Shown here: positions 1 to 61,494 of the stretch, in pieces
How positions within the stretch are numbered: position 1 is the stretch's first letter
How the letters are laid out: the number at the start of each line of letters is the position of its first letter
Assembly (NCBI RefSeq): GCF_035084215.1
Contig: NC_090328.1
Span: 5,952,001-6,016,000 of the forward strand
Length of the DNA stretch: 64,000 nucleotides
Direction of reading: 5' to 3'
Source: Heptranchias perlo
Lineage: Eukaryota
Made by a program: the position numbers and the translations under genes
Notes under the pieces: model-generated
What the model was told of the DNA's origin: nothing
Seen by the model: the letters and a program-made list of their open reading frames with translations, nothing else
The model's database searches: none

Positions 1-1995
1 ACAGCTGACAAGTTAACAGTGGTAAAGAGCTGACAAGCAAACAGTGTTAGACAGCTGACAAGTTAACAGTGTTAGACAGCTGACAAGCTAACAGTGTTAG
101 AGAGCTGACAAGCTAACAGTGTTAAATAGCTGACAAGTTAACAGTGTTAAATAACTTACAAGCTAACAGTGTTAGACAGCTGACAAGTTAACAGTGTTAG
201 ACAGCTGACAAGCTAACAGTGTTAAATAACTGACAAGCTAACAGTGTTAGACAGCTGACAAGTTAACAGTGTTAAAGAGCTGACAAGCTAACAGTGTTAG
301 TCAGCTGACAAGCTAACAGTGTTAGACAGCTGACTAGTTAACAGCGATAGACAGCTGACAAGTTAACAGTGTTAAAGAACTGACAAGCTAACATTGTTAG
401 ACAGCTGACAAGTTAACAGTGTTAGACAGCTGACTAGTTAACAGCGATAGACAGCTGACAAGTTAACAGTGTTAGACAGCTGACAAGTTAACAGCATTAG
501 ACAGCTGACAAGTTAACAGTGGTAAAGAGCTGACAAGCAAACAGTGTTAGACAGCTGACAAGCTAACAGTGTTAAATCGCTGACAAGTTAACAGTGTTAG
601 ACAGCTGACAAGTTAACAGTGTTAAATAACGGACAAGCTAACAGTGTTAGACAGCTGACAAGTTAACAGTGTTAGACAGCTGACAAGTTAACAGTGTTAA
701 ATAGCTGACAAGCTAACAGTGTTAGACAGCTGACAAGTTAACAGTGTTAAAGAGCTGACAAGTTAACAGTGTTAAATAACTGACAAGCTAACAGTGTTAG
801 ACAGCTGACAAGTTAACAGTGTTAAATAACTGACAAGCTAACAGTGTTAGACAGCTGACAAGTTAACAGTGTTAAATAACGGACAAGCTAACAGTGTTAG
901 ACAGCTGACAAGTTAACAGTGTTGAAGAGCTGACAAGTTAAGTGTATTAGACAGCTGACAAGTTAACAGTGTTAGACAGCTGACAAGCTAACAGTGTTAG
1001 ACAGCTGACAAGCTAACAGTGTTAAATAGCTGACAAGTTAACAGTGTTAAATAACTTACAAGCTAACAGTGTTAGACAGCTGACAAGTTAACAGTGTTAA
1101 ATAACTGACAAGCCAACAGTGTTAGACAGCTGACAAGTTAACAGTGTTAAAGAGCTGACAAGCTAACAGTGTTAGACAGCTGACAAGCTAACAGTGTTAG
1201 ACAGCTGACTAGTTAACAGCGATAGACAGCTGACAAGTTAACAGTGTTAAAGAACTGACAAGCTAACATTGTTAGACAGCTGACAAGTTAACAGTGTTAG
1301 ACAGGTGACTAGTTAACAGCGATAGACAGCTGACAAGTTAACAGTGTTAGACAGCTGACAAGTTAACAGCATTAGACAGCTGACAAGTTAACAGTGGTAA
1401 AGAGCTGACAAGCAAACAGTGTTAGACAGCTGACAAGTTAACAGTGTTAAATAACTGACAAGTTAACAGTGTTAAATAACTGACAAGCTAGCAGTGTTAA
1501 ATAGCTGACTAGTTAACAGTGTTAGACAGCTGACAAGTTAACAGTGTTAAATAACGGACAAGCTAACAGTGTTAGACAGCTGACAAGTTAACAGTGTTAG
1601 ACAGCTGACAAGTTAACAGCATTAGACAGCTGACAAGTTAACAGTGTTAAATAGCTGACAAGCTAACAGTGTTAGACAGCTGACAAGTTAACAGTGTTAA
1701 AGAGCTGACAAGTTAACAGTGTTAAATAACTGACAAGCTAACAGTGTTAGACAGCTGACAAGTTAACAGTGTTAAATAACTGACAAGCTAACAGTGTTAA
1801 ATAACTGACAAGTTAACAGTGTTAAATAACTGACAAGCTAACAGTGTTAGACAGCTGACTAGTTAACAGCGATAGACAGCTGACAAGTTAACAGTGTTAA
1901 AGAACTCACAAGCTAACATTGTTAGACAGCTGACAAGTTAACAGTGTTAGACAGCTGACTAGTTAACAGCGATAGACAGCTGACAAGTTAACAGT

Positions 1996-2212
1996 CTGGA
2001 ACGAGCTGCCAGAGGCAGTAGTAGAGGCGGGTACAATTTTGTCTTTTAGAAAGCATTTGGACAGTTACATGGGTAAGATGGGTATGGAGGGATATGGGCC
2101 AAGTGCAGGCAATTGGGACTAGCTTCGTGGTATAAACTGGGCGACATGGACATGTTGGGCCGAAGGGCCTGTTTCCATGTTGTAACTTCTATGATTCTAT
2201 GATTCTATGATT
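1996..2212 (+). mobile_element. CR1 LINE 3'-terminal fragment inside the satellite (copy 1)
   Basis: Encodes ...WNELPEAVVEAGTILSFRKHLDSYMGKMGMEGYGPSAGNWD* and ends in an (ATTCTATG)n tail. Nearly identical to the reverse complement of about 8427-8642. Confidence 0.95.
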
Positions 2213-4434
2213 AGACAGCTGACAAGTTAACAGCATTAGACAGCTGACAAGTTAACAGTGGTAAAGAGCTGACAAGCAAACAGTGTTAGACAGCTGACAA
2301 GTTAAAAGTGATAAATAACGGACAAGCTAACAGTGTTAGACAGCTGACAAGTTAACAGTGTTAGACAGCTGACAAGTTAACAGCATTAGACAGCTGACAA
2401 GTTAACAGTGTTAAATAGCTGACAAGCTAACAGTGTTAGACAGCTGACAAGTTAACAGTGTTAAAGAGCTGACAAGTTAACAGTGTTAAATAACTGACAA
2501 GCTAACAGTGTTAGACAGCTGACAAGTTAACAGTGTTAAAGAGCTGACAAGTTAATAGTGTTAAAGAGCTGACAAGTTAACAGTGTTAGACAGCTGACAA
2601 GTTAATAGCGTTAGACAGCTGACAAGTTAACAGTGTTAAATAACTGACAAGCTAACAGTGTTAAATAGCTGACAAGTTAACAGTGTTAAATAACTTACAA
2701 GCTAACAGTGTTAGAAAGCTGACAAGTTAACTGTGTTAGACAGCTGACAAGCTAACAGTGTTAGATAGCTGACAAGTTAACAGTGTTAGACAGCTGACAA
2801 GCTAACAGTGTTAAATAACTGACAAGCTAACAGTGTTAGACAGCTGACAAGTTAACAGTGTTAAATAACTGACAAGCTAACAGTGATAGACAGCTGACAA
2901 GTTAACAGTGTTAAAGAGCTGACAAGCTAACAGTGTTAGACAGCTGACAAGTTAACAGTGTTAAAGAACTGACAAGCTAACATCGTTAGACAGCTGACAT
3001 GTTAACAGCGTCAGACAGCTGACAAGTTAACAGTGGTAAAGAGCTGACAAGCAAACAGTGTTGGACAGCTAACAAGTTAACAGTGTTAAATAACTGACAA
3101 GTTAACAGCGTTAGACAGCTGACAAGCTAACAGCGTTAAATAGCTGACAAGCTAACAGTGTTAAATAGCTGACAAGCTAACAGTGTTAGACAGCTGACAA
3201 GTTAACAGTGTTAAATAACTGACAAGCTAACAGTGTTAGACAGCTGACAAGTTAACAGTGTTAAATAACGGACAAGCTAACAGTGTTAGACAGCTGACAA
3301 GTTAACAGTGTTGAAGAGCTGACAAGTTAAGTGTATTAGACAGCTGACAAGTTAATAGCGTTAGACAGCTGACAAGTTAACAGTGTTAAATAACTGACAA
3401 GCTAACAGTGTTAGACAGCTGACAAGCTAACAGTGTTAGACAGCTGACAAGCTAACAGTGTTAAATAGCTGACAAGTTAACAGTGTTAAATAACTTACAA
3501 GCTAACAGTGTTAGACAGCTGACAAGTTAACAGTGTTAAATAACTGACAAGCTAACAGTGTTAGACAGCTGACAAGTTAACAGTGTTAAAGAGCTGACAA
3601 GCTAACAGTGTTAGACAGCTGACAAGCTAACAGTGTTAGACAGCTGACTAGTTAACAGCGATAGACAGCTGACAAGTTAACAGTGTGAAAGAACTGACAA
3701 GCTAACATTGTTAGACAGCTGACAAGTTAACAGTGTTAGACAGGTGACTAGTTAACAGCGATAGACAGCTGACAAGTTAACAGTGTTAGACAGCTGACAA
3801 GTTAACAGCATTAGACAGCTGACAAGTTAACAGTGGTAAAGAGCTGACAAGCAAACAGTGTTAGACAGCTGACAAGTTAACAGTGTTAAATAACTGACAA
3901 GTTAACAGTGTTAAATAACTGACAAGCTAGCAGTGTTAAATAGCTGACCAGTTAACAGTGTTAGACAGCTGACAAGTTAACAGTGTTAAATAACGGACAA
4001 GCTAACAGTGTTAGACAGCTGACAAGTTAACAGTGTGAGACAGCTGACAAGTTAACAGCATTAGACAGCTGACAAGTTAACAGTGTTAAATAGCTGACAA
4101 GCTAACAGTGTTAAACAGCTGACAAGTTAACAGTGTTAAAGAGCTGACAAGTTAACAGTGTTAAATAACTGACAAGCTAACAGTGTTAGACAGCTGACAA
4201 GTTAACAGTGTTAAATAACTGACAAGCTAACAGTGTTAAATAACTGACAAGTTAACAGTGTTAAATAACTGACAAGCTAACAGTGTTAGACAGCTGACTA
4301 GTTAACAGCGATAGACAGCTGACAAGTTAACAGTGTTAAAGAACTGACAAGCTAACATTGTTAGACAGCTGACAAGTTAACAGTGTTAGACAGCTGACTA
4401 GTTAACAGCGATAGACAGCTGACAAGTTAACAGT

Positions 4435-4651
4435 CTGGAACGAGCTGCCAGAGGCAGTAGTAGAGGCGGGTACAATTTTGTCTTTTAAAAAGCATTTGGA
4501 CAGTTACATGGGTAAGATGGGTATGGAGGGATATGGGCCAAGTGCAGGCAATTGGGACTAGCTTCGTGGTATAAACTGGGCGACATGGACATGTTGGGCC
4601 GAAGGGCCTGTTTCCATGTTGTAACTTCTATGATTCTATGATTCTATGATT
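4435..4651 (+). mobile_element. CR1 LINE 3'-terminal fragment inside the satellite (copy 2)
   Basis: Same 217 bp and same junctions as copy 1. Confidence 0.95.
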
Positions 4652-6023
4652 GGACAGCTGACAAGTTAACAGCATTAGACAGCTGACAAGTTAACAATGG
4701 TAAAGAGCTGACAAGCAAACAGTGTTAGACAGCTGACAAGTTAAAAGTGTTAAATAACTGACAAGTTAACAGTGTTAGACAGCTGACAAGTTAACAGTGT
4801 TAGACAGCTGACAAGTTAACAGCATTAGACAGCTGACAAGTTAACAGTGGTAAAGAGCTGACAAGCAAACAGTGTTAGACAGCTGACAAGTTAACAGTGT
4901 TAGACAGCTGACAAGCTAACAGTGTTAGAGAGCTGACAAGTTAACAGTGTTAAATAACTGACAAGTTAACAGTGTTAAATAACTGACAAGCTAACAGTGT
5001 TAGACAGCTGACAAGTTAACAGTGTTAAATAACGGACAAGCTAACAGTGTTAGACAGCTGACAAGTTAACAGTGTTGAAGAGCTGACAAGTTAAGTGTAT
5101 TAGACAGCTGACAAGTTAACAGCATTAGACAGCTGACAAGTTAACAGTGTTAAATAACTTACAAGCTAACAGTGTTAGACAGCTGACAAGTTAACAGTGT
5201 TAAATAACTGACAAGCTAACAGTGTTAGACAGCTGACAAGCTAACAGTGTTAGACAGCTGACTAGTTAACAGCGATAGACAGCTGACAAGTTAACAGTGT
5301 TAAAGAACTGACAAGCTAACATTGTTAGACAGCTGACAAGTTAACAGTGTTAGACAGGTGACTCGTTAACAGCGATAGACAGCTGACAAGTTAACAGTGT
5401 TAGACAGCTGACAAGTTAACAGCATTAGACAGCTGACAAGTTAACAGTGGTAAAGAGCTGACAAGCAAACAGTGTTAGACAGCTGACAAGTTAACAGTGT
5501 TAAATAACTGACAAGTTAACAGTGTTAAATAACTGACAAGCTAGCAGTGTTAAATAGCTGACTAGTTAACAGTGTTAGACAGCTGACAAGTTAACAGTGT
5601 TAAATAACGGACAAGCTAACAGTGTTAGACAGCTGACAAGTTAACAGTGTGAGACAGCTGACAAGTTAACAGCATTAGACAGCTGACAAGTTAACAGTGT
5701 TAAATAACTGACAAGCTAACAGTGTTAAAGAGCTGACAAGTTAACAGTGTTAAATAACTGACAAGCTAACAGTGTTAGACAGCTGACAAGTTAACAGTGT
5801 TAAATAACTGACAAGCTAACAGTGTTAAATAACTGACAAGTTAACAGTGTTAAATAACTGACAAGCTAACAGTGTTAGACAGCTGACTAGTTCACAGCGA
5901 TAGACAGCTGACAAGTTAACAGTGTTAAAGAACTGACAAGCTCACATTGTTAGACAGCTGACAAGTTAACAGTGTTAGACAGCTGACTAGTTAACAGCGA
6001 TAGACAGCTGACAAGTTAACAGT

Positions 6024-6240
6024 CTGGAACGAGCTGCCAGAGGCAGTAGTAGAGGCGGGTACAATTTTGTCTTTTAAAAAGCATTTGGACAGTTACATGG
6101 GTAAGATGGGTATGGAGGGATATGGGCCAAGTGCAGGCAATTGGGACTAGCTTAGTGGTATAAACTGGGCGACATGGACATGTTGGGCCGAAGGGCCTGT
6201 TTCCATGTTGTAACTTCTATGATTCTATGATTCTATGATT
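6024..6240 (+). mobile_element. CR1 LINE 3'-terminal fragment inside the satellite (copy 3)
   Basis: Same 217 bp and junctions; carries CTTAGTGG, as the long copy at 8.4 kb does. Confidence 0.95.
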
Positions 6241-7137
6241 AGACAGCTGACAAGTTAACAGCATTAGACAGCTGACAAGTTAACAATGGTAAAGAGCTGA
6301 CAAGCAAACAGTGTTAGACAGCTGACAAGTTAAAAGTGTTAAATAACTGACAAGTTAACAGTGTTAAATAGCTGACAAGTTAACAGTGTTAGACAGCTGA
6401 CAAGTTAACAGTGTTAAATAACGGACAAGCTAACAGTGTTAGACAGCTGACAAGTTAACAGTGTTAGACAGCTGACAAGTTAACAGCATTAGACAGCTGA
6501 CAAGTTAACAGTGGTAAAGAGCTGACAAGCAAACAGTGTTAGACAGCTGACAAGTTAACAGTGTTAGACAGCTGACAAGCTAACAGTGTTAGAGAGCTGA
6601 CAAGCTAACAGTGTTAAATAGCTGACAAGTTAACAGTGTTAAATAACTTACAAGCTAACAGTGTTAGACAGCTGACAAGTTAACAGTGTTAGACAGCTGA
6701 CAAGTTAACAGTGTTAAATAACGGACAAGCTAACAGTGTTAGACAGCTGACAAGTTAACAGTGTTAGACAGCTGACAAGTTAACAGCATTAGACAGCTGA
6801 CAAGTTAACAGTGTTAAATAGCTGACAAGTTAACAGTGTTCGACAGCTGACAAGTTAACAGTGTTAAAGAGCTGACAAGTTAACAGTGTTAAATAACTGA
6901 CAAGCTAACAGTGTTGGACAGCTGACAAGTTAACAGTGTTAAATAACTGACAAGCTAACAGTGTTAAATAACTGACAAGCTAACAGTGTTAGACAGCTGA
7001 CTAGTTAACAGCGATAGACAGCTGACAAGTTAACAGTGTTAAAGAACTGACAAGCTAACATTGTTAGACAGCTGACAAGTTAACAGTGTTAGACAGCTGA
7101 CTAGTTAACAGCGATAGACAGCTGACAAGTTAACAGT

Positions 7138-7354
7138 CTGGAACGAGCTGCCAGAGGCAGTAGTAGAGGCGGGTACAATTTTGTCTTTTAAAAAGCATTT
7201 GGACAGTTACATGGGTAAGATGGGTATGGAGGGATATGGGCCAAGTGCAGGCAATTGGGACTAGCTTCGTGGTATAAACTGGGCGACATGGACATGTTGG
7301 GCCGAAGGGCCTGTTTCCATGTTGTAACTTCTATGATTCTATGATTCTATGATT
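7138..7354 (+). mobile_element. CR1 LINE 3'-terminal fragment inside the satellite (copy 4)
   Basis: Same 217 bp and junctions. Confidence 0.95.
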
Positions 7355-8049
7355 AGACAGCTGACAAGTTAACAGCATTAGACAGCTGACAAGTTAACAG
7401 TGGTAAAGAGCTGACAAGCAAACAGTGTTAGACAGCTGACAAGTTAAAAGTGATAAATAACGGACAAGCTAACAGTGTTAGACAGCTGACAAGTTAACAG
7501 TGTTAGACAGCTGACAAGTTAACAGTGTTGGACAGCTGACAAGCTCACAGTGTTCGACAGCTGACAAGCTAACAGTGTTAAATAGCTGACAAGCTAACAG
7601 TGTTAAATAACTGACAAGCTAACAGTGTTAAATAGCTGACAAGCTAACATTGTTAAATAACTGACAAGCTAACAGTGTTAGACAGCTGACAAGTTAAAAG
7701 TGATAAATAACGGACAAGCTAACAGTGTTAGACAGCTGACAAGTTAACAGTGTTAGACAGCTGACAAGTTAACAGTGTTAGACAGCTGACAAGCTCACAG
7801 TGTTCGACAGCTGACAAGCTAACAGTGTTAAATAGCTGACAAGCTAACAGTGTTAAATAACTGACAAGCTAACAGTGTTAAATAGCTGACAAGCTAACAT
7901 TGTTAAATAACTGACAAGCTAACAGTGTTAGACAGCTGACAAGTTACAGTGTTAAAAAGCTGACAAGCTATATCTTCGTTCCAGCTGGGTCGATGGTTAG
8001 GTTTATGAATGTTTCCTGATTTTATTGATTGTTGCGTAGGTGGCCCTTT

Positions 8050-8339: not shown

Positions 8340-9830
8340 TTGAGGAAGAGCAGGGGGAGTTCTCCCCGGTGTCCTGACCAATATTTATCCATCAACCAAC
8401 ATGGTGAAAAAAAGTGAAAATGGTGATCATAGAATCATAGAATCATAGAAGTTACAACATGGAAACAGGCCCTTCGGCCCAACATGTCCATGTCGCCCAG
8501 TTTATACCACTAAGCTGGTCCCAATTGCCTGCACTTGGCCCATATCCCTCTATACCCATCTTACCCATGTAACTGTCCAAATGCTTTTTAAAAGACAAAA
8601 TTGTACCCGCCTCTACTACTGCCTCTGGCAGCTCGTTCCAGACACTCACCACCCTTTGAGTGAAAAAATTGCCCCTCTGGACCCTTTTGTATCTCTCCCC
8701 TCTCACCTTAAATCTGTGTCCCCTCGTTATAGACTCCCCTACCTTTGGGAAAAGATTTTGACTATCTACCTTATCTATGCCCCTCATTATTTTATAGACT
8801 TCTATAAGATCACCCCTAAACCTCCTACTCTCCAGGGAAAAAAGTCCCAGTCTATCTAACCTCTCCCTATAAGTCAAACCATCAAGTCCCGGTAGCATCC
8901 TAGTAAATCTTTTCTGCGCTCTTTCTAGTTTAATAATATCCTTTCTATAATAGGGTGACCAGAACTGTACACAGTATTCCAAATGTGGCCTTACTAATGT
9001 CTTGTACAACTTCATCAAGACATCCCAACTCCTGTATTCAATGTTCTGACCAATGAAACCAAGCATGCCGAATGCCTTCTTCACCACCCTATCCACCTGT
9101 GACTCCACTTTCAAGGAGCTATGAACCTGTACTCCTAGATCTCTTTGTTCTATAACTCTCCCCAACGCCCTACCATTAACGGAGTAGGTCCTGGCCCGAT
9201 TCGATCTACCAAAATGCATCACCTCACATTTATCTAAATTAAACTCCATCTGCCATTCATCGGCCCACTGGCCCAATTTATCAAGATCCCGTTGCAATCC
9301 TAGATAACCTTCTTCACTGTCCACAATGCCACCAATCTTGGTGTCATCTGCAAACTTACTAACCATGCCTCCTAAATTCTCATCCAAATCATTAATATAA
9401 ATAACAAATAACAGCGGACCCAGCACCGATCCCTGAGGCACACCGCTGGTCACAGGCCTCCAGTTTGAAAAACAACCCTCTACAACCACCCTCTGTCTTC
9501 TGCCGTCAATCCAATTTTGTATCCAATTGGCTACCTCACCTTGGATCCCGTGAGATTTAACCTTATGTAACAACCTACCATGCGGTACCTTGTCAAAGGC
9601 TTTGCTGAAGTCCATGTAGACCACGTCTACTGCACAGCCCTCATCTATCTTCTTGGTTCTTGATCTTGTCATTTATCTCATTGCTGTTTGTGGGATCTTG
9701 CTGTGTGAAAATTGGCTGCCATGTTTCCTACGTTATAACAGCGACCACACTTCAAAAGTATTTAATTGGCTGTGAAGCGCTTTGGGAAGTCCTGAGGACG
9801 TGAAAGGCGCTATATAAATGCAAGGTCTTT
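8340..9830 (+). mobile_element. DeuSINE (SacSINE1-like) split by the CR1 insertion (parts about 8340-8428 and 9661-9830)
   Basis: The two halves are collinear with the intact copy at 44127-44585 and end in GTGAAAGGCGCTATATAAATGCAAG. A further fragment lies at about 8218-8335. Confidence 0.8.
8427..9660 (-). mobile_element. Young 5'-truncated CR1 LINE with an uninterrupted ORF2 reverse-transcriptase C-terminal half (ORF 8452-9672)
   Basis: Motifs YMDFSKAFDKVPH, GVPQGSVLGP, KFADDTK, LVRPHLEYC, RGH..K and WN.LP; (ATTCTATG)n tail; candidate TSD TGATC at 8424-8428 and 9661-9665. Confidence 0.96.
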
Positions 9831-35292: not shown

Positions 35293-35439
35293 TTTAATGC
35301 CAGCTTTATGCCCAGGCAGCAAGTCCAAAGTCTACCCCGTTGTGTCATCGTCAAGTCTGTAACCTCACCTCGTTCAGGGACCCGCTAATAACAGCGGCTA
35401 AAAAAAAGGACGGTGTCTCATCGGTTCACTCATCGGCCT

Positions 35440-35601
35440 GGCCGTTAAAGGGTTAAGGTGCCTGTCTGTGGGCGGAGTTTTAACACTGACTGCACGGCTG
35501 GGAAGGAAGCAAAAGGAAGCGGGTTTTCAGGATCAATCTCAGTGCCGAGCAGGATTCAAGCGACAGAAGAGCTCTGAACGCGGAGGGGGCTGAGGAGGAC
35601 A
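35440..35601 (+). promoter_or_regulatory. Probable TATA-less promoter / 5' UTR of the Siglec-15-like gene
   Basis: GC box GGGCGG near 35470 and clustered ETS cores GGAAGGAAGC..AAGGAAGC at 35501-35520, directly upstream of the ATG. Confidence 0.5.
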
Positions 35602-35650
35602 ATGCTGCCCATTTTGCTCTGTGCGATCGCCCAGGTCGTCTCTGCTGCAG
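35602..35650 (+). CDS. Siglec-15-like receptor exon 1, signal peptide MLPILLCAIAQVVSAA
   Basis: ATG with A at -3, a hydrophobic 16-aa leader and a phase-1 donor CAG|GTGCGT, as is typical of IgSF leader exons. Linkage to downstream exons crosses an N gap. Confidence 0.72.
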
Positions 35651-36124
35651 GTGCGTATTTCACAGCCTGAAGCAGCAGCAATTAGTCTCTTTCCCGTTTG
35701 CTGCATCGCGCGTTTTAAATCTGTCGGAAATGGCCAGGGATTGAGACCTCTTGCTCCAGATTATTGGTAAAAGTCTTCGCGTGTTAATGTTAAACGTGTT
35801 CGAGTGCCCGCGACACAGCTTCTACCTTCAGTTAACTCACCCCTGGTGGCATCTGACTTCAAGGGTGGATAGGCATCTCGTTCCTCCTGATGAATTCTTT
35901 CACCGTACCTGAGAGAAAGTAAAGTTCAATATTAAGTTTCGGCCGCTCTTTGTCCTCCGATTGTCCGATGACGACACTTCGGTTTAATATCAAACCAAAC
36001 AATATAGTGCTGTGGGCCAGTTAATTATTGTACTGGCCCAATGTTTCACTCAAGCTTCTCCAGTGAGTAGCTGATCCATACAGTCTAGGATGGTCACAGA
36101 ACCGATCCCCGATCTGTGATGTTG

Positions 36125-42945: not shown

Positions 42946-43065
42946 AAGCCTGTCACTGCAGTGCATCCTGTTTCAGAGCCTACACCACATGAAGCTTTAA
43001 TGGGAGGAGTTGTACGGCCTTTTCTCATTCTGTGCTTTCCTGTGATACGTTGTTATGCCTCAAAA

Positions 43066-43465
43066 GTGTCCGTGAGAACGGCTGGACCATGGAGACCCCG
43101 GATAGGGTGACGGGTAGAGAAGGGAAGTCTGCCGTTCTGTTCTGCAAGTTCACTCACCCTTACCCTGGATATAAAGGCAACATCACCGTCATGTAGATGA
43201 GAAACCTGGAAAGATGTGGCACTTTTTAATTACACAAATTATCGATCACTAAACTGGCAGAGCAGTGGGTTTGAGAATCTGATCCACCAGAATGTAGACG
43301 AGCGCTACAGACTGATGGGGAACCCGAGGGAGAACGATGCTTCCATAATGATCCAACATCTGACTCTACGCGATAACGAACGGCAATTTATTTGCCTTGT
43401 GGATCTCCAGGACTATACGAATGAAACCTCCCAAAGCTTGTTTCAAACAATTCTTGTGGTGGCAG
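43066..43465 (+). pseudogene. Disabled Siglec-15-like V-set exon (pseudo-exon)
   Basis: Reads WTMETPDRVTGREGKSAVLFCKFTHPYPGYKGNITVM* (TAG at 43194-43196 in place of the conserved Trp), then a frameshift, then WKDVALFN...RYRLMGNPRENDASIMIQHLTLRD..FICLVD...LVVA. The phase-1 donor CAG|GTGAGG is intact, but there is no in-phase AG acceptor. Confidence 0.85.
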
Positions 43466-43485
43466 GTGAGGTGGATTATTGGGTC

Positions 43486-44760: not shown

Positions 44761-45609
44761 ATAATTTCTTTTTATTGTGAGGTAAATAGTCATTTCAATT
44801 TGTCGTAAAGGTGCCTCACTTTCTGTTTCAGTGACTATCTCCACACATGCAAATGACGATCCAGATTCTTTCCCCTCAGTCTGGTTCAGTAAAAACTGAA
44901 GTCGAATACATTTTAAAGTTCATCACAACTTTAATAGCAGGTCTTAGTCTGTAGCTTCAATTCAGATTCCTGAGAGAATCCGAACGATTCTAACAGAATA
45001 AGGAGACAAAGACAAAGACAAAAACTCATACCTTTACATTTATACAGATCGATAGGGGTTGGAACATCATTAACACAAGAGTCAACACCAATCATAAGCC
45101 GGGCACAGGTTGCCATGCGAGATTACATTATTGCCGGCCAATCATAGACAATCCATGTGCTGACCATGTTGCTGTTAGACATCAAAGGGGATACTTCCTC
45201 ACCTTCCAACTTGGAATGTTCTTCCCTGTTCCTTCTGTTCCTTATCTCCCAACCTGGAATGTCTTTCAACTTTGGCTAAGCTCGTTACCTATATTGATCT
45301 GCCATAAACATGGAGACATTCAGACCAGTCCTTGAATCACATCAAAGACTCTACATTGATGAGACAATGCAAACCTGCTAACTACGCAAACATATGGCCC
45401 AGCAGGAGGCCAGGCCACCTGTACCATTCTCAGTTACTAACTAATTAACCCTTTCTAACCATTTTGCATTCTGCTTCTTTGCCACGTAGGCATTTTAATA
45501 TTTTACCGAAAACTGACCACGTAGGGATTCTCACAAACATAACGTAAACTGTCTCCATACACTGCGCTACTGAATAATATACATTCTTTGAAACCCTTCT
45601 CTATCTCAG

Positions 45610-45969
45610 CTGATAGGAACAATATCTGGCGAGTGACTGTGAACAAGGGAGATTCTGCCACACTGCCCTGCACCTTCAGTCCCCCTGACCAGTATCCGAG
45701 TAATATCACTGTCCTCTGGATGAAGGAGAATCCATGGAAAGAGTCGGTTGTTTTTAATCAAACTCGTTCCCTCAGGGATGGTTCTGACTCAGTTACTGTA
45801 AATAAAGGAGATCGATATCAGCTGATCGGAGACCCAACCCAAGGAGACGCCTCCATAAGGATGAGGGACCTGGGGCTGAACGACACCAGCAAGTATTTCT
45901 GTCACGTACACGTCAAGAATGGGGGAAGGGAATATGTGACTCAGGATGAGATGAGGCTACAGGTTGTCG
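45610..45969 (+). CDS. Siglec-15-like receptor, intact V-set Ig exon
   Basis: Acceptor TTCTCTATCTCAG|, 360 nt, phase 1-1, donor CG|GTAAGG. Motifs ATLPCTF, VLW, RYQLIGDP..GDASI and D...YFC resemble Siglec-15 VLPCTF...RFRLLGNP.RNDLSL...YFCRV. Confidence 0.9.
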
Positions 45970-46064
45970 GTAAGGAAACATATACGTCAAAGATAACAGG
46001 AAAAATAACTTTTGACCATTTTTTATTTTGTCATCCGGTCATTGAATGGTTTTGATAGTTTTTT

Positions 46065-47638: not shown

Positions 47639-47665
47639 TATCGACGTCTTTCTTTCTTCCCCAAG

Positions 47666-48043
47666 CCCCAGCCACCATCCTGGAGCTGTCGGTCGTGACC
47701 GATAACATAATCGGAGACTCCATCGTGTGTAAGGTCGAAGGGGAGCCACCTGCAAACATCACATGGATCGACCCTGAAAACAGCGCACTGCCCGGGAACA
47801 GCACGACAGTCACACAACTCCTGGAAAAACATCAAACTGTCGGAGAGATTCTTAACCCAACGCTGAGAGGGAACTACAGTTGTGTGGCTGTAAATGAGCA
47901 CGGGAGGGACGTCCGTCAGATCCACTTCCCCGCCGCTGACAACGATTACTCGAATTTCATTATCGCGATGCTGTGCCTGATCCCGCTAGCTAAATTTCTC
48001 CTCCTGCTGATAACAGGGATCATTCTCTTCATTAAAATAAAAG
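47666..48043 (+). CDS. Siglec-15-like receptor, C2-set Ig plus transmembrane exon with intramembrane Lys
   Basis: Polypyrimidine tract then AAG| (alternative CAG| giving a start at 47672), phase 1-1, donor AAG|GTACGT. Reads APATILELSV...CKVEGEPPANITW...GNYSCVAVNEHG; TM FIIAMLCLIPLAKFLLLLITGIILFI. Confidence 0.9.
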
Positions 48044-51357: not shown

Positions 51358-51381
51358 ATTAAGTGACTGTACAAACTGAGG
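51358..51381 (+). CDS. Siglec-15-like receptor 24-nt microexon containing the stop codon (…KIKD*, TAA at 51360-51362)
   Basis: Strong acceptor TTTACTCTTCTTCCCTACAG| and consensus donor AGG|GTAAGT; phase 1-1. Confidence 0.62.
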
Positions 51382-55450: not shown

Positions 55451-55475
55451 TTAGCATTAAAAATTATTTGCATAC

Positions 55476-55946
55476 CTTATTGTAGACGACACAGCTCGAT
55501 TTATTTTAGCCACTGACAGTTGCTCTCCTGGTTCTCGTTTTCTTGACAGGCAGCTGAAGGATTCATCCATTCCTGACGAAGTCCCTGTTCGCAGACGGCC
55601 TGAGATCTTGGGGAGCTTTCCTCCGATTTTATCTCTGAACAATCGATCCTTGTATATTGAAGGGATGGCCCGGTGTATTGAGGGGCCTTTCATGAGCCTC
55701 AGTTCCTGGAACACTGAGAAAGATGACACTGTGTTGGTTGCCATAGCAACTCCGCACATAGTGGACGACGCAATATCTACTGCAACACAAACTATTCCAA
55801 CCCAACTTATTTCCATTATTACCATCTTTTTTGTCGCAACTACAACGGACATCTTTAGACAAGACTGTGGAGAGCACAATATTTTACAAGTGACATTCTC
55901 ATCGTGCTCCATACTTGGTGAAGTGTCTTTGCCATAACATCACTGC
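55476..55946 (-). other. Candidate exon of an unidentified minus-strand transcript (ORF from ATG 55912, 145 codons, phase 2)
   Basis: Acceptor TTCCCCCCCAACAG|, Kozak AGTATGG and donor AAG|GTATGC in non-repetitive DNA. No recognised homology. Confidence 0.35.
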
Positions 55947-56049
55947 CTGTTGGGGGGGAACCTCGATCTGTTGTTACAGGTCTTTACGTGGCTGGAAACT
56001 TGGGCAAGAAAATGTAGAGAAAGAGAGAGGAAGATTAGAGGAAGAGGGG

Positions 56050-57659: not shown

Positions 57660-60600
57660 GTTATCACTGAGACTGAGAGGGGACGGAGAGGGGGAGGGTA
57701 GTGTTATCACTGAGACTGAGAGGGGACGGAGAGGGGGAGGGTGGTGTTATCACTGAGACTGAGAGGGGACGGAGAGGGGGAGGGTAGTGTTATCACTGAG
57801 ACTGAGAGGGGACGGAGAGGGGGAGGGTAGTGTTATCACTGAGTGTGAGAGGGGACGGAGAGGGGGAGGGTAGTGTTATCACTGAGACTGAGAGGGGACG
57901 GAGAGGGGGAGGGTAGTGTTATCACTGAGTGTGAGAGGGGACGGAGAGGGGGAGGGTAGTGTTATCACACAGACTGAGAGGGGACGGAGAGGGGGAGGGT
58001 AGTGTTATCACTGAGACTGAGAGGGGACGGAGAGGGGGAGGATAGTGTTATCACACAGACTGAGAGGGGACGGAGAGGGGGAGGGTAGTGTTATCACTGA
58101 GACTGAGAGGGGGACGGAGAGGGGGAGGGTAGTGTTATCACTGAGACTGACAGGGGACGGAGAGGGGGAGGGTAGTGTTATCACTGAGACTGAGAGGGGA
58201 CGGAGAGGGGGAGGGTAGAGTTATCACTGAGACTGAGGGGGGGACGGAGAGGGGGAGGGTAGTGTTATCACTGAGACTGAGAGGGGACGGAGAGGGGGAG
58301 GGTAGAGTTATCACTGAGACTGAGGGGGGGACGGAGAGGGGGAGGGTAGTGTTATCACTGAGACTGAGAGGGGACGGAGAGGGGGAGGGTAGTGTTATCA
58401 CTGAGACTGAGGGGGGGACGGAGAGGGGGAGGGTAGTGTTATCACTGAGACTGAGGGGGGGACGGAGAGGGGGAGGGTAGTGTTATCACTGAGACTGAGA
58501 GGGGACGGAGAGGGGGAGGGTAGTGTTATCACTGAGACTGAGAGGGGACGGAGAGGGGGAGGGTAGTGTTATCACTGAGACTGAGAGGGGACGGAGAGGG
58601 GGAGGGTAGTGTTATCACTGAGACTGAGAGGGGACGGAGAGGGGGAGGGTGGTGTTATCACTGAGACTGAGAGGGGACGGAGAGGGGGAGGGTAGTGTTA
58701 TCACTGAGTGTGAGAGGGGACGGAGAGGGGGAGGGTAGTGTTATCACTGAGACTGAGAGGGGACGGAGAGGGGGAGGGTAGTGTTATCACTGAGTGTGAG
58801 AGGGGACGGAGAGGGGGAGGGTAGTGTTATCACTGAGACTGAGGGGGGACGGAGAGGGGGAGGGTAGTGTTATCACTGAGACTGAGGGGGGACGGAGAGG
58901 GGGAGGGTAGTGTTATCACACAGACTGAGGGGGGACGGAGAGGGGGAGGGTAGTGTTATCACTGAGACTGAGAGGGGACGGAGAGGGGGAGGGTGGTGTT
59001 ATCACTGAGACTGAGAGGGGACGGAGAGGGGGAGGGTAGTGTTATCACTGAGACTGAGAGGGGACGGAGAGGGGGAGGGTAGTGTTATCACTGAGACTGA
59101 GGGGGGGACGGAGAGGGGGAGGGTAGTGTTATCACACAGACTGAGAGGGGACGGAGAGGGGGAGGGTAGTGTTATCACTGAGACTGAGAGGGGAGGGAGA
59201 GGGGGAGGGTAGTGTTATCACTGAGACTGAGAGGGGACGGAGAGGGGGAGGGTAGTGTTATCACTGAGACTGAGGGGGGACGGAGAGGGGGAGGGTGGTG
59301 TTATCACTGAGACTGAGAGGGGACGGAGAGGGGGAGGGTAGTGTTATCACTGAGACTGAGAGGGGACGGAGAGGGGGAGGGTAGTGTTATCACTGAGTGT
59401 GAGAGGGGACGGAGAGGGGGAGGGTGGTGTTATCACTGAGACTGAGGGGGGGACGGAGAGGAGGAGGGTAGTGTTATCACTGAGTGTGAGAGGGGACGGA
59501 GAGGGGGAGGGTAGTGTTATCACACAGACTGAGAGGGGACGGAGAGGGGGAGGGTGGTGTTATCACTGAGACTGAGGGGGGACGGAGAGGGGGAGGGTGG
59601 TGTTATCACTGAGACCGAGAGGGGACGGAGAGGGGGAGGGTAGTGTTATCACTGAGACTGAGGGGGGGACGGAGAGGGGCAGGGTAGTGTTATCACTGAG
59701 ACTGAGAGGGGACGGAGAGGGGGAGGGTAGTGTTATCACTGAGTGTGAGAGGGGACGGAGAGGGGGAGGGTAGTGTTATCACTGAGACTGAGAGGGGACG
59801 GAGAGGGGGAGGGTAGTGTTATCACTGAGTGTGAGAGGGGACGGAGAAGGGGAGGGTAGTGTTATCACTGAGACTGAGAGGGGACGGAGAGGGGGAGGGT
59901 AGTGTTATCACTGAGTGCGAGAGGGGACGGAGAGGGGGAGGGTAGTGTTATCACTGAGTGTGAGAGGGGACGGAGCGGGGGAGGGTAGTGTTATCACTGA
60001 GACTGAGAGGGGACGGAGAGGGGGAGGGTAGTGTTATCACACAGACTGAGAGGGGACGGAGAGGGGGAGGGTAGTGTTATCACTGAGACTGAGAGGGGAC
60101 GGAGAGGGGGAGGGTAGTGTTATCACTGAGACTGAGAGGGGACGGAGAGGGGGAGGGTAGTGTTATCACTGAGACTGAGAGGGGACGGAGAGGGGGAGGG
60201 TAGTGTTATCACACATACTGAGAGGGGACGGAGAGGGGGAGGGTAGTGTTATCACTGAGACTGAGAGGGAACGGAGAGGGGGAGGGTAGTGTTATCACTG
60301 AGTGTGAGAGGGGACGGAGAGGGGGAGGGTGGTGTTATCACTGAGACTGAGAGGGGACGGAGAGGGGGAGGGTAGTGTTATCACTGAGACTGAGGGGGGC
60401 CGGAGAGGGGGAGGGTAGTGTTATCACTGAGTGTGAGAGGGGACGGAGAGGGGGAGGGTGGTGTTATCACTGAGTGTGAGAGGGGACGGAGAGGGGGAGG
60501 GTAGTGTTATCACTGAGACTGAGAGGGGACGGAGAGGGGGAGGGTGGTGTTATCACTGAGACTGAGAGGGGACGGTGAGGGGGAGGGTAGTGTTATCACT

Positions 60601-61329
60601 GAGACTGAGAGGGGACGGAGAGGGGGAGGGTAGTGTTATCACTGAGACTGAGAGGGGACGGAGAGGGGGAGGGTGGTGTTATCACTGAGACTGAGAGGGG
60701 ACGGAGAGGGGGAGGGTGGTGTTATCACTGAGACTGAGAGGGGACGGAGAGGGGGAGGGTAGTGTTATCACTGAGACTGAGAGGGGACGGAGAGGGGGAG
60801 GGTGGTGTTATCACTGAGACTGAGAGGGGACGGAGAGGGGGAGGGTAGTGTTATCACTGAGTGTGAGAGGGGACGGAGAGGGGGAGGGTAGAGTTATCAC
60901 TGAGTGTGAGAGGGGACGGAGAGGGGGAGGGTAGTGTTATCACTGAGTGTGAGAGGGGACGGAGAGGGGGAGGGTAGTGTTATCACTGAGTGTGAGGGGG
61001 GACGGAGAGGGGGAGGGTAGTGTTATCACTGAGTGTGAGGGGGGACGGAGAGGGGGAGGGTAGTGTTATCACTGAGACTGAGAGGGGACGGAGAGGGGGA
61101 GGGTAGTGTTATCACTGAGTGTGAGGGGGGACGGAGCGGGGGAGGGTAGTGTTATCACTGAGACTGAGAGGGGACGGAGAGGGGGAGGGTAGTGTTATCA
61201 CTGAGTGTGAGGGGGGACGGAGAGGGGGAGGGTAGTGTTATCACTGAGTGTGAGAGGGGACGGAGAGGGGGAGGGTAGTGTTATCACTGAGTGTGAGAGG
61301 GGACGGAGAGGGGGAGGGTGGTGTTATCA
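57660..61329. repeat. 43-bp purine-rich minisatellite (GTAGTGTTATCACTGAGACTGAGAGGGGACGGAGAGGGGGAGG), about 85 units
   Basis: Direct 43-bp periodicity. Confidence 0.97.
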
Positions 61330-61494
61330 TGGAGGCTGACAGGGGATGGACAGAGGGTCGTGTTATTTTACTGAACTGCCAATGGTTTTCTTGGTTTCAA
61401 AACTATTATTTTGTTTTACCATTCATATTAGTAAAAGATGTTTTATTGTAAGTGAATTTTTTGTGGCTTGTTTTCGACTTTTTTCTGAAGATTT

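Follow-up and report, generated by a model that had tools for sequence, protein, structure and literature searches.

Possible skipping of a broken distal V-set exon in a Siglec-15-like gene of the shark Heptranchias perlo

In the window analysed here (64,000 nucleotides of Heptranchias perlo, contig NC_090328.1, positions 5,952,001 to 6,016,000), a receptor gene, hereafter gene A, carries a distal V-set exon (V1) that is broken. Our best explanation, to which we give a probability of roughly 0.47, is that gene A survives by skipping this exon in frame. It would then encode a short receptor made of a leader, a second V-set domain (V2), a C2-set domain and a transmembrane (TM) segment with a lysine, leader-V2-C2-TM(Lys), the predicted activating member of a pair formed with a linked gene, gene B. 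The TM lysine of gene A would couple to DAP12/DAP10, and such coupling to DAP10/DAP12 has been described for the TM lysine of Siglec-15 (PMC7226832). Gene conversion would keep V2 and C2 of gene A matched to gene B, V1 would be dispensable because its sialic-acid arginine was already absent, and the short receptor would signal on ligands binding the common V2-C2 surface.

Lesions of V1 and exon structure of gene A

The dead V1 exon lies at 43066..43465 on the plus strand, as located by sequence, alignments and genome search, and retains an intact donor (GTGAGG). It is no chance match, since it is 90.1% identical in nucleotides to the V1 of its paralogue, gene B, over 282 nt (blastn), and was retrieved in the genome search with E-values of 5e-20 and 7e-19. 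The initial annotation of this DNA had described three lesions, and alignment, profile and sequence recovered all three at or near the places it gave. The splice acceptor is lost at 43064..43065, where AA stands for the AG of the paralogue; in the ungapped alignment, gene A reads CTCAAAA/GT and the intact paralogous V1 CTCACAG/GT. No phase-1 AG that could serve V1 was found within 42993-43105. Rescue through the AAG at 43064-66 (phase 2; 399 nt, a multiple of 3) was rejected, as it meets a stop 14 codons on. A premature TAG replaces the core Trp codon (TGG>TAG) at 43194..43196. Finally, one extra base shifts the frame within 43197..43201. The segment past the TAG measures 34 nt versus 33 nt (11 codons) in the orthologues, and scoring of an extra base against 13 intact V1 segments gave a maximum at 43198, the five best positions being 43197-43201, in agreement with the interval first proposed. 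A frameshift at about 43208-43222, suggested by the paralogue alignment, was ruled out by this orthologue profile. Within 43197-43230, the 30-nt segment of gene B fits the shifted register of the dead exon best by nucleotides, with a 1-nt and a 3-nt gap. Gene B may thus share the extra base plus a compensating deletion, in which case a conversion border could have broken gene A; protein scores (1.5 versus 2.1) give no decision.

An X1 contig over 43166-43462 shows 0 other letters and 0 gaps. Because it reproduces both the stop and the frameshift, these two are not assembly errors in the X1 sample, which may be the assembly's own source and whose “RNA-type” label is a guess. No run recorded as RNA was among those that the search returned. 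The reality of the lesions, for which the initial annotation had proposed a check, is thus upheld for the part of V1 that this contig covers. The acceptor sits in an A run outside the displayed contigs, which leaves some room for the view that the lesions are assembly errors and that gene A is an intact V-V-C2 receptor. With the stop and extra base repeated in X1 at 0 differences and with three lesions of three kinds, we consider it very unlikely.

V1 has not diverged from its orthologues more than V2, C2 or TM have, which argues that its loss is recent and has left little time for decay elsewhere in the gene. A recent loss would also suit a null allele carried by one individual, the species retaining an intact V1-V2-C2 allele as humans do with SIGLEC16 and SIGLEC16P. 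The runs examined all come from one sample, and dimorphism of activating partners is known (PMC5701461). Still, three separate lesions need time to accumulate, and the lone X1 contig over the exon shows the broken form only, though contigs drop rare variants; we regard a null allele as improbable, if less so than an error of assembly.

The other exons of gene A, all on the plus strand, are clean. The leader (signal peptide) exon at 35602..35650 (MLPILLCAIAQVVSAA) ends in a phase-1 donor, GTGCGT, and resembles the leaders of two orthologues. It is followed, past V1, by the V2 exon at 45610..45969 (sequence, Pfam and PDB alignment), with a His at the arginine position, and by the C2+TM exon at 47666..48043, whose TM segment contains LAKFLL (Lys codon at 47992-47994) and is 77-85% identical to those of three elasmobranch orthologues. 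A 24-nt micro-exon at 51358..51381 encodes the final Asp and the stop codon (protein end IKIKD), and matches the end of the database protein XP_067838508.1 and of the orthologues. The start portion of a 3' untranslated exon (acceptor TTGACAG) lies at 55550..56000, with X1 contigs over 55549-55761 and 55773-56000. Pfam matches in gene A are to V-set and Ig. All coding junctions are in phase 1, so skipping of V1 preserves the frame, as the initial annotation had proposed and the exon phases bear out.

The sole database model of gene A, XP_067838508.1 (286 aa, labelled Siglec-15, Heptranchias perlo), is identical to the gene A exons. It is leaderless, with its first Met at 43348 within the dead V1, and joins V1 to V2. 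A scan for an alternative leader, using donor consensus frequencies, gave three non-CAG candidates scoring >4.5, none of them with an upstream in-phase Met. In the V1-V2 intron, a donor-like GAG/GTAAAT at 44770-44790 is a candidate end of an alternative first exon. At the C2 exon, two in-phase acceptors stand 6 nt apart (47660-47672), the first being used in an X1 contig. Opposite the 3' untranslated exon, the minus strand holds a 158-codon stop-free frame (55461-55937).

Gene B and its probable exchange with gene A

Gene B lies on the opposite strand, from a leader at C4:6084576 to a last coding exon at C4:6047553, and the C2 exons of the two genes are about 76 kb apart on C4. It encodes an intact V1 with the arginine, V2 in two copies, a C2 and an anchor that is uncharged; its long tail contains two motifs, ILYSSV (ITIM consensus) and TLYSTV (ITSM type). 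The two genes thus share near-identical ectodomains (V2 and C2 96-99%, part of V1 90%) and end in opposite signalling parts, as judged by motif only: their membrane anchors are unrelated, that of A having a Lys and the IKIKD end, that of B no charged TM residue. Gene A is therefore predicted to be the activating-type and gene B the inhibitory-type member of a pair. Of the contigs displayed, those of X1 have the letters of A, and those of X6 and X7 have B-like letters.

Three A/B conversion tracts were delimited by blastn on the plus strand of the window. The V1 tract (43075..43356, 90.1% identical) ends 5' of the strand that carries the arginine; the remaining exon is A-type, and in protein this 3' part has 78% identity with shark orthologues and 20% with B. 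The tract around V2 (45545-45989) is 96.9% and 96.0% identical to the two V2 copies of B, and that at C2 (47651-47927) is 98.6% identical. The likeness ends within tens of bases into the introns and, inside the C2+TM exon, just ahead of the anchor. Synonymous and non-synonymous differences between A and B are too few for a selection test, and of the A/B differences in V1, 7 polarise each way and 6 could not be polarised.

Trees place the two genes by lineage in the ectodomain and by type at the signalling end. The protein trees comprised 29 rows, with one isoform per gene and with the partial or fused models P0042, P0043, P0046, P0047, P0055 and P0065 excluded. In the V2 tree, A and B are sisters within a species in five of the eight species having both (Heptranchias, Heterodontus, S. 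canicula, Pristis and Callorhinchus), the sister of B in Callorhinchus being a second Lys-bearing gene; in the other three (two skates and Hemitrygon), A and B cluster by skate or stingray lineage only. The C2 tree contains starred A+B pairs in three of the eight species, while Callorhinchus clusters by species and S. canicula is not resolved. On the other hand, the TM tree pairs A with B in no species, and in a 23-row TM tree all 18 Lys-bearing anchors fall in one clade (98/97), from few columns and with long branches. The 3' part of V1 also divides by type, A versus B (99/100, rough bootstrap). Such trees show repeated A/B gene conversion, as read from the sequences, across sharks, rays and a chimaera. 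The same tree pattern has been described for SIGLEC11/16 (PMC5701461) and for paired receptors generally (PMC13358205). The initial annotation had overlooked this pair, which weakens the clean Ig exons as a sign of function, since conversion from B can supply both V2 and C2 without selection.

The V2 of gene B is present twice, in nearly identical copies 1829 bp apart (C4:6076913-6079119), and database isoforms use one or both. Between A and B lies a third gene (C4:6034466-6037117) with a single V carrying the arginine, a C2 and an uncharged anchor; proteins like it are found in Carcharodon and Amblyraja. Further V1-V2 genes occur at C4:4.97, 5.70, 5.81 and 6.13 Mb.

Ancestry of V1 and relation to Siglec-15

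Among 16 other chondrichthyan species in which a gene bearing a gene A-type TM was seen, 13 have models with a full V1. In the remaining three, Hemitrygon has an isoform with part of V1 only, and two Scyliorhinus species have none with a full V1. The 13 species support an ancestral receptor of intact V1-V2-C2-TM(Lys) architecture, with V1 as its standard distal domain, in line with the V-V-C2 ancestor of the initial annotation. That annotation had also taken V1 for a duplicate V exon. The likeness of V1 to V2 is about 40%, and several genes in a cluster (C4:4.97-6.14 Mb) contain the two as a unit in that order; by these comparisons V1 and V2 are ancient distinct domains and no recent duplicate pair.

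At the place of the sialic-acid-binding arginine (R143 of human Siglec-15), where gene B V1 aligns an Arg, the dead V1 has a Leu codon (43396..43398, plus strand). R143, on strand F, is the essential arginine that binds sialic acid in human Siglec-15 (PMC10264397). In the 13 orthologous A-type V1s, this position is Leu in 11, Trp in one and Arg in one; the arginine is thus missing from 12 of 13 A-type V1s and present in 5/5 B-type V1s. It is thus improbable that the lost V1 ever served as a canonical site for sugar binding. The idea that the domain lost was the Siglec-like, sugar-binding one is not supported, given this Leu, which it shares with 11/13 orthologues. Resemblance to Siglec-15 greater than that of V2 had been claimed from the V1 N-terminus; it holds for the N-terminal third, the first 40 residues of the dead V1 matching human Siglec-15 with an E-value of 1.5e-5, but fails for the remainder. 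A Siglec-15 model from a lungfish (XP_043934105.1) has the V-V-C2-TM(Lys) architecture too, and each of its V domains carries the Arg. Two genes of Callorhinchus bear the Lys: the V1 of one is A-type, whereas that of the other is B-type and retains the arginine.

In two catsharks, the gene A models are leader-V2-C2-TM(Lys)-Asp proteins of 267 aa (S. canicula XP_038661837.1 and S. torazame XP_072371762.1), the same product, in another shark lineage, as the short receptor proposed here. These models come from automatic annotation and were judged from proteins. The protein searches made returned no full-V1 catshark protein, and four further species have isoform models that omit most of V1. Loss in catsharks would be independent of the Heptranchias loss, since Mustelus, a relative, retains V1.

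PDB 7ZOZ (human Siglec-15) is the best PDB match for V1, for V2 and for an orthologous full protein. Coelacanth Siglec-15 finds its best matches in the Heptranchias genome in the gene A/B cluster, and this search gave no better match outside C4. Like gene A, Siglec-15 combines V-set and C2-set domains with a TM lysine, and the Lys of the orthologue aligns with that of 7ZOZ. Unlike the gene A ancestor, it has one V domain instead of two, and R143 where gene A has Leu (dead V1) and His (V2). The Siglec-15 V domain also has an extra C95-C104 disulfide (PMC10264397), whereas in gene A neither V1 nor V2 has any cysteine beyond the canonical two. In addition, gene A differs from Siglec-15 by its one-residue tail and its inhibitory twin. 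At the human locus, the neighbours of SIGLEC15 are urea-transporter (SLC14A) and ATP-synthase (ATP5F1A) genes. The search for them on C4 gave no urea-transporter match, all of these being on C1, and no ATP-synthase match; in 200 kb behind the C1 urea transporter, neither an Ig match nor a separate conventional Siglec-15 was found. We have therefore filed gene A, by its sequence, as Siglec-15-like and not as Siglec-15, since it has neither the arginine nor the extra disulfide and synteny does not settle the question.

Splicing and the fate of gene A

The 3' part of gene A is spliced, since an X1 contig joins 45968 to 47665 (V2 to C2-TM) with the letters of A, running through the A-specific TM at 0 differences. 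Another X1 contig has 53 unplaced letters, which would correspond to a 30-letter overlap plus the length of the micro-exon. For the X1 V1 contig, 31 unplaced letters would fit CAG plus 28 bases of V2, that is, a V1-to-V2 join as in RefSeq, and the start of the X1 V2 contig, 45608, misses by one base the start that a leader-to-V2 join sharing GCAG should give. These joins are read from 31-letter word overlaps, with no displayed joints. The 35650>45610 leader-to-V2 junction was seen in no contig displayed, repeats having swamped the joint and loose-end tables. Over 35320-36100 there are 0 contigs from X1, X8 and X6, whereas the DNA run X2 spans the interval in one piece; since filtering may remove contigs, this counts neither for nor against the junction. 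The depth of X1 contigs differs widely between V1 and V2-C2-TM and was dropped as evidence, because depth cannot rank the parts of a gene. The initial annotation had the exon left out of transcripts. Against this, the RefSeq model XP_067838508.1 splices V1 to V2 and the X1 contig would fit such a join, so that its proposal is contradicted in part.

These joins also bear on a second reading, in which gene A is a young transcribed pseudogene: its transcripts would start inside or after V1, or include V1, yielding no signal-peptide-bearing protein, and its V2 and C2 would be clean through overwriting by B. We hold this to be a serious contender, nearly as likely as the short receptor. The leaderless RefSeq model with its start Met at 43348 and the contig arithmetic, which would fit a V1-to-V2 and not a leader-to-V2 join, count for it and against the short receptor. 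Moreover, the clustering of the lesions is unremarkable once the converted exons are set aside: the chance that three random lesions all fall in V1 is 0.34 on unconverted targets only and 0.04 with V2 and C2 included. The ATG lies about 300 bp past the end of a 20-kb satellite array, and SIGLEC16P offers a primate precedent (PMC5701461). Primates have often lost activating partners (PMC5701461; PMC13358205), which we also counted against the short receptor. However, a pseudogene is harder to reconcile with an intact leader and donor, TM lysine, micro-exon and downstream splicing, and with a V1-less product kept in the models of two catshark species. The short receptor is favoured since the leader, the TM and the micro-exon are intact although they lie beyond conversion repair, and since the catshark models represent the same product.

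The design itself is known from primates, where paired Siglecs are held alike by conversion; here it appears in a Siglec-15-like family of sharks, rays and a chimaera. SIGLEC11/SIGLEC16(P) and SIGLEC5/SIGLEC14 are, like A and B, linked genes, one with an ITIM and one with a charged TM, whose ectodomains are homogenised by repeated conversion and whose activating partner has been damaged (PMC5701461; PMC13358205; PMC4042635). The primate pairs, however, are CD33-related and convert the sialic-acid-binding exon, whereas in the Siglec-15-like A/B pair conversion is tightest in V2 and C2 and the V1 tract does not reach the strand with the arginine. Unlike the primate pairs, the A/B pair can be traced from the chimaera to sharks and rays. 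Shortening of a Siglec by in-frame skipping of the distal V-set exon, as proposed for gene A, has a parallel in CD33m, the exon-2-skipped CD33 (PMC6712934). CD33m, however, is a regulated isoform of an inhibitory receptor that skips an intact exon and thereby loses its sugar site, whereas the gene A exon is destroyed and had no arginine. A full-text search, with subscription journals largely outside it, turned up no publication that treats Siglec-15-like pairs of cartilaginous fishes, and a word search of the main text of two shark immunity papers (PMC7677710, PMC6795676) found no mention of Siglecs.

Dead exons are nothing unusual in immune genes that evolve fast; what stands out is the apparently repeated loss of an arginine-less V1 from the activating partner while V2-C2 are kept matched. 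Should Heptranchias and the catsharks both make the short receptor, the surface on which the pair is kept matched is V2-C2 instead of the sugar site, and this would point to where the ligand may be sought. If it is not made, gene A is a shark parallel of SIGLEC16P, an activating partner lost. A more far-reaching scenario, which we think unlikely, would have the pair kept since before the chimaera/shark split, with B sensing sialic acid through V1. Gene A would have lost the arginine early, been matched to B over V2-C2 only and shed V1 independently in the hexanchiform shark and in catsharks, to become a decoy blind to sialic acid and set off by microbial proteins that grip B at its stalk-side domains.

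The window contains other features. The satellite upstream of gene A, at 15121-35299, consists of about 693 tandem copies of a 29-bp unit; two more tandem arrays, with units of 25 bp and 43 bp, occupy 1-7967 and 57660-61357, respectively. Several LINE reverse-transcriptase-like fragments were recognised by eye at 8452-9672 and elsewhere, the longest of 406 codons on the minus strand.
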